Below are positions 59,101 to 60,667 of a stretch of 64,000 nt of DNA, piece by piece. A program made the position numbers and the translations under genes. Source of the stretch: Prorocentrum cordatum (Eukaryota); NCBI GenBank assembly GCA_963575745.1, contig CAUYUJ010000084.1, positions 1 through 64,000 on the forward strand, in the 5' to 3' direction. Within the stretch, counting starts at the first letter, position 1. Every line of letters begins with the position of its first letter. The notes beneath the pieces are model-generated. The model searched no databases, was not told the origin of the DNA, and worked only from the letters and a program-made list of their open reading frames with translations.

Positions 59101-60667
59101 ACGGTGCTGGTTGCAGCGAATTTCCCCCAGCTTCCCTCATCAAAAGAATGATGAGGTTGTCATCGACGAGTTCGTCATCCAGCTCATGAGGCTCAAGGGT
59201 GGAGCAAGGGGACTCGACCTGCAGACAGTACTCTACGAGAACAAGCGCATCTTCTGCCGACTCTCGGCCATGATGAGGCCCCGTGGAGAAACACAATCTG
59301 GGGTGCGGGAACGCGCATGAGCGCAGACACTTCTCACGCCCACGAAGTGTGTCTCCGTCAGCGATGGCTCCTCTACGGTAGGTTCGTGTCGTGCCGACGC
59401 GGCAGCGACCCCGCCAGCGATCGCTCAAGGCTGAGCGACCCACGCGGTGTCGGAGACCAGCGGCGAGGTCGTCACGACACGAACTCGCCGCACCCGCACC
59501 CCTCCCCAGCGCGCGAAGAGAGGCCGGGACCGGAGCGAAGAGGCCCCGCCCGGGGATGCGGGGCGAAAGGGAGTCCAATGCCGGCGGAGGAGGCGTCGGC
59601 GGACGCCCGCAGTCTGTGCGTTTCTGGCTTGCTGGCATCGGGTCGGTGGCAGCGGGGGTCTTCTGACTAGCAGCCCTCCCGCCTTGCTGTCGGAGGCTGC
59701 CAGGAGGGTTCGTTGGACAAGGTCGGCCTCGCTGGGCCTCAGGCCCCCCCCCCCAGTCGGGGAAACGTAGGACTCGAGTAAGCCAGAACTCGAGTCTGCC
59801 GACGTTTTTTGACGAGCGCGTCTTGGATTTTGACCGTCCTGTTTTCGTGGGATGTTTGCAGCGGGAGCTCGCGTCAAATTTCAGATTGTGCCTCGTCATT
59901 TTTATGATGGCCCCGTCAGGCCAGCCCGAGCCCCCCGTACCCGAGTCCCCGAGTCTTACGTCTCCCCGACCCAGCCCGACCTGGGGCCCTCCACGGTGAC
60001 CGGAGGCCTCTGAGCAGCCGTCGAACTCGCGAGCCTCCGAGGAAGCCCCCTGCCTTCTTAGGAGGCTGCCAGAAGGGTTCGTTAGACTCGGCTTCGCTGG
60101 ACCTCGGGCCCCCCCCCCAGCCCGACCTGAGGCCCTCCAGAGCGACCAGAGGCCCCTGAGCAGCGGTCGAACTCACCCGTCTTGAGCCAGGCCTCGGGAG
60201 CCTCCGAAGAAGCCCCCCTGCCTTAGAAGGCCTCCCCCCGTCCCTTCTTGCTCATACCAATCGCTCTATCTCTCTGGGCCGTACTGTTTGAGCTGAGCCA
60301 AGCCTTGGCCGCGAGAACCCTCCAGGAGGCCCAAAACGAAGGCGCAACCTCAAAACCTTGGAGGTCGAACCTCCCGTAGGTTGAAACGAAAACACCCCAT
60401 GGTGCGCGCCGCCAAGAGGTTCATGGAGAAGCACGTCGGGCTCATGGAGACGCGGCTCAACATACACACGGCCGAGGAGTTTTCCATGCGAGAGATATCC
60501 ACGTGCTTGCGGCAAATTCCGCCACCGTGCCAAGGGATACGGGGCCTCAGGAGGGGGAGGCCTGCATGCGGAACACACCCACGCTGTGTAAGCACGGTGG
60601 CGGACTCATGGACGAAGAGGGGATGCAGAAGACCCTTGCTGTCGGCGCGACCGTCCCTGTTGCGTAG
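29149..60667 (+). CDS. Single-domain voltage-gated cation channel with two EF-hands, paralogue 2. Exons ~29149-29230, 44626-44786, 46502-46606, 46786-46902, 54002-54075, 55521-55874, 58240-58386, 58550-58679, 59156-59277, 60419-60496, 60604-60667.
   Basis: Joined exons give an open frame colinear with paralogue 1, from [14 protein letters not shown] to [14 protein letters not shown]...VPVA*. Eight junctions are GT/GC/GA-AG and two are AT...GG. Confidence 0.88.
29497..40950 (+). repeat. Large array of a complex repeat family: (GGCCGTCTTGG/GGCCTCTTGG)n tracts punctuated by a conserved hairpin core
   Basis: GGGGCGGCGGATCGAAGACGCCTACGGCGAATCACCGCCGCCCC at ~30497, 32317, 35532, 36771, 38327, 38703, partial at 29497. 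Includes a ~1.93-kb tandem duplication (36576 vs 38508). Confidence 0.9.
34849..35136. repeat. (GCC)n microsatellite
   Basis: Direct inspection. Confidence 0.95.
42390..43920. repeat. (TAC)n microsatellite (~1.1 kb total) interrupted by a MITE
   Basis: Near-perfect TAC runs at 42390-43274 and 43710-43920. Confidence 0.95.
43275..43709. mobile_element. 435-bp MITE with ~27-bp TIRs and TA target duplication
   Basis: TA|GGCAACGGACCGGCCTCCAGGCCGGGG ... CCCCGGCCTGGAGGCCAGGCCGTTGCC|TA, with three subterminal CCCCGGCCTGGAGGCC copies. Confidence 0.8.
44626..44786 (+). CDS. Channel 2 exon (pre-S1/S1)
   Basis: [10 protein letters not shown]...[29 protein letters not shown] donor at 44787. Confidence 0.82.
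45132..45282 (+). repeat. Dispersed ~150-bp repeat (copies at 56843-56992 and, more diverged, ~55293-55465)
   Basis: GTCGGCCCTGATTAGTAGGTCGA...AAATCAAG.GTACCCTTGTGTCC...GTCCTGTCCAATCAAGTCCGAC is shared. Confidence 0.8.
46502..46902 (+). CDS. Channel 2 exons 46502-46606 and 46786-46902 (S1-S3)
   Basis: VNTVYMGIQ...IDMFFV / [43 protein letters not shown] intron 46607-46785. Confidence 0.88.
46988..47775 (+). repeat. Repeat element with internal ~80-bp units; second copy at 48732-49695
   Basis: Both copies start CCAGTGCAAACCC, contain GGCGCTAAG.CGAGAGCCACATTTTGAAAA...CCTCAATCCGTG units, and end GGAAGTCTCAGGC...GCGACAGGGAGG...AAGGAAAA.GAATG. Confidence 0.8.
49790..50863 (+). pseudogene. Degenerate coding remnant ending in a PHD/RING-like Cys-His cluster (possibly transposon-derived; a further fragment at ~52380-52615)
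   Basis: Non-repetitive, coding-like sequence with stops/frameshifts; [28 protein letters not shown]. Confidence 0.35.
50954..52100. repeat. ~152-bp tandem minisatellite (~7.5 copies) with G/C homopolymer hairpins
   Basis: ATTACGAGGTTGCTCAAGGTCGGCTTGGCTGGAGCCCAGGGG starts at 50954, 51107, 51258 etc. Confidence 0.95.
54002..54075 (+). CDS. Channel 2 exon (S4)
   Basis: [29 protein letters not shown]| acceptor and GA donor. Confidence 0.88.
55521..55874 (+). CDS. Channel 2 exon (S5, pore, S6)
   Basis: [15 protein letters not shown]...AISGGRDW...FGVLNI. Confidence 0.92.
55875..58239 (+). other. Non-canonical AT...GG intron (channel 2; same position as 6723-7756)
   Basis: AAC AT|ATTC...TGGCGG|C TTG ACT; 18-bp stem 55897-55914/58222-58239. 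Confidence 0.78.
57300..57852. repeat. (GTC)n degenerate microsatellite
   Basis: Direct inspection. Confidence 0.95.
58240..59277 (+). CDS. Channel 2 exons 58240-58386, 58550-58679 and 59156-59277 (EF-hand region)
   Basis: [11 protein letters not shown]...[12 protein letters not shown]...[29 protein letters not shown]. Confidence 0.9.
60419..60667 (+). CDS. Channel 2 terminal exons 60419-60496 and 60604-60667
   Basis: [33 protein letters not shown] aligns to paralogue 1 RFMEKHMGMLETRLDIQSTEEATMKEFLLDEED. TAG at 60665-60667. Confidence 0.78.
   Translation, partial: VHGEARRAHGDAAQHTHGRGVFHARDIHVLAANSATVPRDTGPQEGEACMRNTPTLCKHGGGLMDEEGMQKTLAVGATVPVA
60497..60603 (+). other. Non-canonical AT...GG intron, 107 nt (channel 2 only)
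   Basis: GAG AT|ATCC...TGGCGG|A CTC. Length is not a multiple of 3. 13-bp perfect stem 60518-60530/60592-60604. Confidence 0.75.

Follow-up and report, generated by a model that had tools for sequence, protein, structure and literature searches.

Introns that lack GT-AG ends, carry a hairpin and move as elements are a kind already described in a few protists. In Amoebophrya strains A25 and A120 more than 60% of introns are non-canonical (PMC7789003), and 11% (A25) and 30% (A120) of these non-canonical introns carry inverted repeats of 8-20 nucleotides (nt) together with direct repeats of 3-5 nt at the boundaries, in strain-specific families (PMC7789003). The Amoebophrya inverted repeats lie 1-5/1-6 nt from both splice sites (PMC7789003, Fig. 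S23 legend). Here we describe a 107-nt intron of this kind at 60497-60603 of a 64,000-nt stretch of eukaryotic DNA (contig CAUYUJ010000084.1, positions 1 to 64,000, plus strand; 60.5% G+C), referred to below as the window. The intron lies near the 3' end of the second of two paralogous channel-like genes and is precisely removed from messenger RNA (mRNA) despite having no GT/GC/GA..AG ends. Its architecture, with a subterminal 5' stem arm and no boundary repeat, differs from those described. The comparisons below use the descriptions given in the available parts of the cited texts, not the published family sequences, and within that material no description of a subterminal-arm, repeat-free architecture was found.

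The likeness to the Amoebophrya introner elements (PMC7789003) is considerable. Both have RNA-supported introns outside GT-AG with no fixed dinucleotide, both have an inverted repeat linking 5' and 3' intron parts (8-20 nt there, 13 base pairs (bp) and perfect here), and in both the repeated families lack a transposase and stand beside ordinary introns. Unlike in Amoebophrya, a conserved leader precedes the 5' arm here, which begins 20 nt inside the intron at position 21; the 3' arm and its splice site are separated by 0-1 nt. There is also no boundary direct repeat of 3-5 nt, the boundary ambiguity being 1 nt (2 nt in a larger intron of the same gene, called the big intron below). The nonconventional introns of euglenids (PMC11170887, PMC11282704, PMC3935182, PMC4770533) likewise have variable non-canonical borders and an RNA stem joining their ends, are suspected of an origin resembling miniature inverted-repeat transposable elements (MITEs), occupy new positions within genes and have lengths between tens and thousands of nt. 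Pairing in the euglenid introns involves short terminal boxes, CAG/CTG at +4..+6 / -8..-6, whereas here positions -8..-6 read GTG and the pairing is 13 bp and 5'-subterminal; repeats resembling target-site duplications are frequent in the euglenid introns and circular excision products are known. In a further departure from the euglenid context, the other introns of the channel-like gene follow AG/GH...AG/GH (a slash marks a cut site).

Dinoflagellate introner-like elements (10.1101/2020.10.14.339549; PMC10666404) are non-autonomous and intron-creating, and their inverted repeat, as here, extends up to the 3' splice site. The conventional introns that neighbour the 107-nt copy fit the dinoflagellate grammar: their donors are GA, GC or GT, exonic GH comes after the AG, and direct repeats mark the boundaries. 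A preference for GC donors is also known from E. huxleyi (PMC4028052). The dinoflagellate elements have G[ACT]..AG ends with a splice site taken from a target-site duplication of 3-8 nt, but the hairpin family described here has neither. Introns of Fritillaria borealis (PMC11282704; PMC13326754) are also transposon-derived and non GT-AG with conserved terminal repeats. They differ in belonging to an animal lineage and in having mostly AG..AC / AG..AT ends, and the portions of these sources at hand do not describe a subterminal arm.

Removal of the 107-nt intron from mRNA

Public sequencing runs were sought by the words they have in common with 58150-60900, and four runs from four studies (X1, X3, X10 and X17) were aligned to the window. 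X10 and X17 are recorded as polyA RNA-seq; the kinds of X1 ('?') and X3 ('RNA?') are guesses. One contig in each of the 4/4 runs carried the joint 60496->60604, skipping exactly 107 nt with 0 mismatches and a 1-base ambiguity. The exons matched the RNA contigs without a single differing letter, for as much as 1134 nt, in all four studies, and the interior of the intron had zero contig depth, even in X1 at a contig depth of 229. The skipped segment starts ATCCACGTGC and ends ACGGTGGCGG, and the joint left after its removal reads GAGATACTC. The database protein P0001 (317 amino acids, JGI source, 1523-nt contig) is 100% identical to the spliced translation over 297/297 residues, across the junction. 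Removal of the 107 nt restores the reading frame and gives a product colinear with the uninterrupted exon of paralogue 1 at 7758-8240 (EEATMKEFLLDEED). The first-pass annotation of this DNA had proposed the removal from the repaired frame and the colinearity, and the RNA joints and P0001 bear it out; neither retention of the 107 nt in mRNA nor splicing from a canonical donor to another last exon was seen in the contigs of the four runs. Together these data confirm that 60497-60603 is a genuine intron, precisely removed from mRNA despite the absence of GT/GC/GA..AG ends.

When the joint was slid over its ambiguity the RNA allowed only AT..GG or TC..GA ends, and no GT/GC/GA..AG boundary. A canonical alternative running from GT 60503 to AG 60592 (90 nt) was rejected, as it is in a different frame and absent from the RNA. 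Assignment to the U2-type spliceosomal class was rejected as well, neither the 107-nt intron nor the big intron having the GT/GC/GA..AG ends of that class. In the U12-type (AT-AC) consensus the cut lies directly before [AG]TATCCTT, a branch-site box stands near the 3' end and the intron ends in AC/AG. The site here does read GAG ATATCCAC, but RNA puts the cut within ATATCC, 2-3 nt in, the intron ends in GG/GA and no U12 branch box was found in the 107-nt intron by eye, and this class was rejected too.

The same RNA contigs place the big intron. In 4/4 runs a loose contig end before 58241 read CTGAACATA / GGCGTGCTGAACATA and mapped uniquely to 55846-55875, giving an intron at 55876-58240 (+0 to +2), where 55875-58239 had first been annotated. 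Its ends are TT..GC, or TC..CT at +1 and CA..TT at +2 within the 2-nt ambiguity; AT..GG is impossible, and the mRNA at this joint reads AAC ATA TTG, not AAC ATC TTG. The two RNA-verified introns agree in one register only, exon ...ATA / T[C/T]C ... GGCGG[A/C] / exon, and the intron of paralogue 1 at 6724-7757, placed by homology, also fits it as ATA / TYC...GGCGGM. The 'AT...GG class' of the first-pass annotation is therefore replaced by T[C/T]..G[A/C] ends, and all three family introns of the window come after a complete ATA codon and not, as had been read, after the AT of an isoleucine codon. The 107-nt and 2365-nt introns are homologous at both ends, over ~35-45 nt (5') and ~40 nt (3'), and the short intron resembles the two ends of the long one joined. 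The big intron must be removed to make transmembrane segment S6.

Stem, leader and repeated family

The element is built from a 20-nt leader, TCCASSTGYYTGCGGCAAAY, followed by a C-rich arm, CCGCCRCCGTGCC, that pairs with the last ~13 bases (GGCACGGYGGCGG+N). In the 107-nt intron the stem formed by 60518-60530 / 60592-60604 is 13 bp long and perfect, as previously annotated. It is part of the minimum free energy (MFE) fold, and blocking the 5' arm costs 12.7 kcal/mol. The stem was compared, in register from the 3' end, across the four copies that have both ends (the 107-nt intron, the big intron, the marine metagenome copy L004 and the paralogue-1 intron). Pairs 2-9 were standard pairs in 32/32 cells. 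Pair 7 is A:U in the 107-nt intron, G:U in the big intron, G:C in L004 and G:U in the paralogue-1 intron, and pair 8 is C:G, U:G, C:G and A:U in the same order, making two double compensatory changes with wobble intermediates. The wobble cells were G:U on the sense strand in 4/4 cases (~1 in 16 by chance), where the other strand would give A-C mismatches. The 5' arm starts at intron position 21, 21, 21 and 20, and the 3' arm extends to the 3' splice site or stops 1 base short of it. In this sequence comparison the conservation of the stem and its compensatory changes provide the best evidence that pairing matters at the RNA level.

Hairpins as such are frequent in the window. Perfect inverted repeats of at least 12 bp within 120 nt gave 54 rows, 18 of them outside two low-complexity arrays, as compared to 0-2 (mean 0.53) in 30 dinucleotide shuffles of the window, so that hairpins are non-random but common in this genome. 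A guide pairing of the leader with the 3' exon was suggested by duplex prediction but rejected, as a background of random 12-mers was at least as good in fractions of 0.64, 0.38, 0.85 and 0.81 for the four copies.

A 7-copy profile searched with nhmmer found exactly two matches in the window, the 107-nt and big introns, with E values of 6.5e-18 and 2.1e-15. The motifs that the first-pass annotation had listed as common to these two introns are real: TGCGGCAAA occurs exactly at only two sites in the window, 55886 and 60508, and GCACGGTGGCGG occurs exactly at 58228(+) and 60592(+), with its complement at 60519(-). When 1 mismatch was allowed TGCGGCAAA gave 9 matches vs 12.9 expected, and this 9-mer alone is thus unremarkable.

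Marine metagenome contigs were scanned with a 24-nt degenerate pattern, which returned 13 loci. Eight of these (L001, L002, L005-L009 and L011) had no flanking family sequence and were dropped as chance or unrelated matches. The remaining 5/13 (L003, L004, L010, L012 and L013) have a further 12 upstream bases ([T/A]ATCCASCTGCC) and ~20 downstream bases in common, beside unrelated flanks. Identity between L003 and L012 is 98.3% across 299 nt and sets in exactly at TATCC, their upstream sequences being different. L004 is the only metagenome copy that contains both ends, and its element is 788 nt long. The L013 copy adjoins a 213-codon open frame; the coding context of the other four is ambiguous. 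TA stands directly before TCC/TTC in 7/8 copies (AA in L010), and it is this dinucleotide that is conserved in place of the AT target preference first proposed. L004 alone has TA on both flanks, the three window copies having it on the 5' side only. Element interiors contain tandem arrays of 10-11-nt GGGCCNTCTTG-type units, and such arrays also fill 29.6-38 kb of the window.

The repeated family thus includes two RNA-verified introns and one inferred intron in the window and five metagenome copies with different flanks. As the metagenome copies stand beside unrelated flanks, the family is or was mobile, in agreement with the first-pass annotation, and it is these copies and not the 107-nt copy alone that demonstrate mobility. 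The 107-nt intron is the shortest known copy of this non-autonomous repeated element. As such it delimits the conserved parts, which come to ~33 nt (5' end) and ~13-45 nt (3' end), in keeping with its earlier description as a minimal form. Among 105 open reading frames (ORFs) from the five family loci and the big intron no transposase or Rep domain was found, the sole match being the Ion_trans domain of the host exon, and a scan of viral contigs with the family pattern gave 0 matches. A DNA transposon with terminal inverted repeats or a MITE was rejected, as the perfect repeat reaches the terminus on the 3' side alone and there is no target-site duplication; the extreme 5' end and the 3' end show, by eye, only a gapped 10-of-14 likeness.

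Helitrons start with 5' TC after a host A, end with 3' CTRR before a host T, have a 3' hairpin and no target-site duplication, and encode Rep/Hel in autonomous copies. The hairpin family is like them in having no target-site duplication, in a TC start directly after a host A in 6/8 copies (TT in the other two) and in a small palindrome just inside the 3' end. Unlike Helitrons, it ends in GGCGGM and not CTRR, the next host base is T in only 2/4 copies, and no Rep/helicase was present in the 105 ORFs. Helitron introners make no target-site duplication (PMC12130899), and a relation of the hairpin family to Helitrons is a lead only.

Excision and history of the 107-nt copy

The best overall explanation, and one we consider probable, is a genuine intron derived from a non-autonomous element, with cut sites set by structure. 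Splice sites would then be specified by RNA structure and not by end dinucleotides: the 3' cut would coincide with the stem end, and the 5' cut would come directly after exonic TA, 20 nt before the 5' strand of the stem begins. The stem would be required for removal, and the 107-nt copy would have arisen by insertion. Cutting may be done by the spliceosome of the cell, as reported for the non-canonical introns of Fritillaria, and not by a separate enzyme, a proposition to which we give slightly less than an even chance. This explanation draws on the observed removal from RNA, the family membership, the in-register conservation of the stem with compensatory changes and the constant offset of 20-21 nt.

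Several points weigh against it. The covariation comes from four sequences only, two of which are paralogous introns. With the main 5' arm blocked, a weaker alternative stem uses the extreme 5' end, and competing local hairpins occur at both intron ends. The MFE z was -1.14 for the intron alone, -1.72 with 15-nt flanks and -0.86 with 30-nt flanks, none significant vs shuffles. The duplex between the first 40 and last 40 nt ranked at percentile 16 (107-nt intron), 6 (big intron) and 58 (paralogue 1) among random window pairs, likewise not significant, and this background is inflated by GC-rich repeats. Neither a target-site duplication nor an empty site was seen for the 107-nt intron, only the 1-nt boundary ambiguity. 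Contigs drop rare variants, so low-level retention would escape, and an uncovered interior is an absence of cover only. Among 20 public-run rows 0 had at least half of the locus words, each having about a fifth of them, which is roughly the estimated exon share, and no DNA run contains the locus, so that the RNA-sequenced cells might lack the 107 nt in their DNA.

The alternative that survives best concerns only the cutting machinery. Here a structure-specific endonuclease with a ligase, or a transposon-derived enzyme, would recognise the stem and measure the cuts independently of the spliceosome. The lack of a spliceosomal dinucleotide at either end and the constant distance from the 5' cut to the stem both speak for such a route, against which no bulge-helix-bulge or IRE1-type loop is visible at the junctions and no ribozyme was matched in Rfam. 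Known systems point both ways, as the nonconventional introns of euglenids are described as probably independent of the spliceosome and released as circles (PMC11170887, PMC11282704) but the odd introns of Fritillaria have been ascribed to the U2 spliceosome (PMC11282704). On balance we regard spliceosome-independent excision as unlikely, with the spliceosome the better candidate. Catalysis by the intron itself found no support. An Rfam gathering search of the window gave 0 matches and an E-value search of 60400-60700 gave two chance-level matches only (E 3.8 and 6.3), and a group I/II self-splicing intron or small ribozyme was rejected on the lack of a matching catalytic RNA family in Rfam and the length of 107 nt; the self-splicing that the first-pass annotation listed for assay is thus unsupported.

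The second alternative concerns the age of the intron. The stretch encoding RFMEKHMGMLETRLDIQSTEEATMKEFLLDEED lies on one uninterrupted exon of 483 nt in paralogue 1 (7758-8240), as the first-pass annotation had stated, and is split into five exons in paralogue 2. Paralogue 1 is without all four 3' introns of paralogue 2 and keeps only the 5'-proximal intron at the NI/LT codon position. A bias of intron loss toward the 3' end is a prediction of the model of reverse-transcript-mediated loss. The 107-nt intron could thus be old, predating the split of the paralogues, with paralogue 1 having lost it and its three neighbours in one cDNA-mediated conversion, and the lack of a target-site duplication at the 107-nt intron is also as expected from such a history.

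The neighbouring introns argue for the opposite direction. The RNA contigs that skip the 107 nt also skip 58381-58543, 58677-59152 and 59275-60415, and with the joints slid over their ambiguity these three conventional introns are readable as AG/GC..AG/GC, AG/GT..AG/GT and AG/GC..AG/GT. Direct repeats of exon sequence bound all three (58381-58559, 58677-59157 and 59275-60419): 16 nt TGGAAGGCTACGCGCA, GAGGT (5 nt; 13 nt imperfect) and GAGG (4 nt). Given these boundary repeats and the absence of the introns from paralogue 1, the three look gained, in what looks like insertion or duplication with both splice sites supplied by the repeat (AG/GC..AG/GC). The 5' end of the 107-nt copy is moreover nearer the family consensus than that of the big intron in the same gene, and near-identical family copies occur at different loci. 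An ancestral origin is accordingly rather improbable in our view, a shade more so than excision without the spliceosome. If it were true, the 107-nt copy would be uninformative on recent mobility. The first-pass annotation had argued from the presence of the intron in one paralogue to an independent insertion site and a mobile class; the mobility of the family stands, but the inference from the one-paralogue presence does not, as one cDNA-mediated loss gives the same pattern.

A third alternative is a presence/absence polymorphism, in which the RNA came from alleles or strains without the element and the assembly copy is an unspliced MITE insertion in a pseudogene allele. None of the public DNA runs contains the locus and the kinds of X1 and X3 are uncertain, as this would allow. 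Against this, the exons were identical (0 other letters, up to 1134 nt) in the four studies, removal restores the frame exactly, and the big intron of the same architecture, which has to come out to make S6, is removed in the same contigs and in the same register. We consider a polymorphism very unlikely. An artefact, whether a reverse transcriptase that switched templates across the hairpin or a wrongly joined contig, could be favoured by the stable hairpin and the 1-nt microhomology at the boundaries, but is scarcely credible, as the skipped segment begins 20 nt upstream of the stem and not at its foot, the joined form is the sole form in four independent studies with the frame restored and the paralogue matched, and the independent database protein P0001 has the same junction.

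The favoured explanation, an intron of element origin with structure-set cut sites, can be extended to a more specific joint reading. The stem would act as a ruler for machinery other than the standard spliceosome: its end would place the 3' cut, and a distance of exactly 20 nt upstream, after exonic TA, the 5' cut. Spread of the family would involve no target-site duplication, its route being rolling circle, reverse splicing or single-strand 'peel and paste', and the host would be an alga with GH..AG introns (a core dinoflagellate or another) in which annotation confined to G[TCA]..AG would have hidden the family. Taken as a whole we think this combination doubtful, and less probable than either spliceosome-independent excision or an ancestral origin taken singly.

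Gene context, further hairpins and significance

Both channel-like paralogues are on the plus strand, with ~48 kb between them, and their coding sequence is 52-55% GC. The gene carries an Ion_trans domain (Pfam), and EF-hand families are carried by its relatives; paralogue 2 is a single-domain voltage-gated-channel-like gene (Ion_trans + EF-hands). The 16 long ORFs of the window gave no informative Pfam match. On base composition Mesodinium (31-32% GC) was excluded as the host; candidates considered were Amoebophrya A120, a haptophyte and a GC-rich core dinoflagellate such as P. cordatum (59.7% GC). Were it Amoebophrya A120, the intron class would already be in print and the novelty confined to the architecture. 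The features of the two genes and of the introns are collected in Table 1.

Table 1. Coordinates of introns, exons and stem elements in the window
Feature	Position	Strand	Remarks	Evidence
Intron of paralogue 1, at the NI/LT codon position as in the big intron of paralogue 2	6724..7757	+	same architecture, 9-bp stem	boundaries inferred by homology
Uninterrupted exon of paralogue 1	7758..8240	+	covers the region of the five exons of paralogue 2	
GA..AG intron (AG/GA..AG/GA)	54076..55520	+	exon MMNFSF...RAAR at 54017-54076	inferred from P0001
2365-nt intron, same family and same gene	55876..58240	+	16-bp stem with 3 G:U pairs	loose end ...GAACATA before 58241, 4 runs
GC..AG intron, 163 nt	58387..58549	+	flanked by 16-nt direct repeat	RNA joint
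GT..AG intron, 476 nt	58680..59155	+		RNA joint
GC..AG intron, 1141 nt	59278..60418	+	4-nt boundary repeat; just upstream of the exon of the 107-nt intron	RNA joint
Coding exon upstream of the 107-nt intron	60416..60496	+	81 nt	contig pieces in 4 runs
107-nt non-canonical intron	60497..60603	+	ends AT..GG or TC..GA (equally 60498-60604)	RNA joint 60496->60604
20-nt 5' leader with TGCGGCAAA	60498..60517	+	small local hairpins possible	conserved in 7 aligned copies
5' arm of the 13-bp stem	60518..60530	+	subterminal, from intron position 21	inverted-repeat scan, alignment
3' arm of the stem	60592..60604	+	ends exactly at the 3' splice site	inverted-repeat scan, alignment
Last coding segment to the TAG stop	60604..60667	+	transcript runs on into the 3' untranslated region (UTR)	RNA contigs, P0001, paralogue alignment
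Putative 3'-UTR intron, 297 nt	60726..61022	+	long terminal stem, CG..TG or GC..TT	loose end in X10 only

In both paralogues an S4-like exon (3880-3924 / 54017-54076) is followed by an intron readable as AG/GA..AG/GA. GA donors are typical of recently gained dinoflagellate introns (10.1101/2020.10.14.339549). A related database protein, P0013, has a normal channel N-terminal part followed by an Arg/Gly/Pro-rich tail that has no likeness in related proteins, as if an unremoved or mis-modelled intron had been translated.

Two further segments of the window have the appearance of hairpin introns. Downstream of the stop codon the X10 contig leaves the window at 60725 and resumes uniquely at 61023, and X1 leaves at 60823 and resumes at 61041 (60824-61040). 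The first and last 40 nt of 60726-61022 pair from first base to last with -42.7 kcal/mol, at about the 1st percentile of random pairs, and such a fully terminal stem is as described for Amoebophrya (PMC7789003). By its appearance 60726-61022 would be a second non-canonical intron of the hairpin type, here with a fully terminal stem, in the 3' UTR; an alternative form would exist as well. In paralogue 1 a perfect 15-bp inverted repeat (8290-8304 / 8386-8400, a span of 111 nt) lies in the open frame after the LLDEED region, with GATA before it. A further intron of the hairpin type is possible at 8290-8400, but as the segment length is divisible by 3 the frame is uninformative.

Other repeats were also recorded. 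Arrays of 10-11-nt units GGGCCGTCTTG / GGCCTCTTGG occupy 29600-38000 and occur in the interiors of the five metagenome family loci (L003, L004, L010, L012 and L013); a literature search on the 10-nt units gave nothing relevant, but the arrays may be of use in identifying the host. An 89-90-nt tandem repeat at 1-2377 forms three arrays with 87-94% matches, at 1-183 (period 89, 2 copies), 896-1858 (10.5 copies) and 1895-2377 (5.4 copies), with a CTC-rich stretch between the first and second. More perfect inverted repeats of at least 12 bp lie at 21328-21507, 36769-38839 and 63487-63877, among them GTGTTCCCCGAA/TTCGGGGAACAC three times and CACGTGTCACCC/GGGTGACACGTG twice.

To our knowledge, hairpin-bearing, transposon-like introns outside GT-AG are known from very few lineages, and we know of no one who has established how they are cut. 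This locus brings together an RNA-verified copy of 107 nt, a 2.4-kb sister in the same gene, GC/GT..AG neighbours that can serve as internal controls, and natural compensatory variants of the stem. Two questions could be put to so compact a substrate: are the cut sites determined by the stem together with a leader of constant length (20 nt), and does the spliceosome take part? For annotation the consequence is direct, as gene models limited to G[TCA]..AG will break genes that contain such introns.

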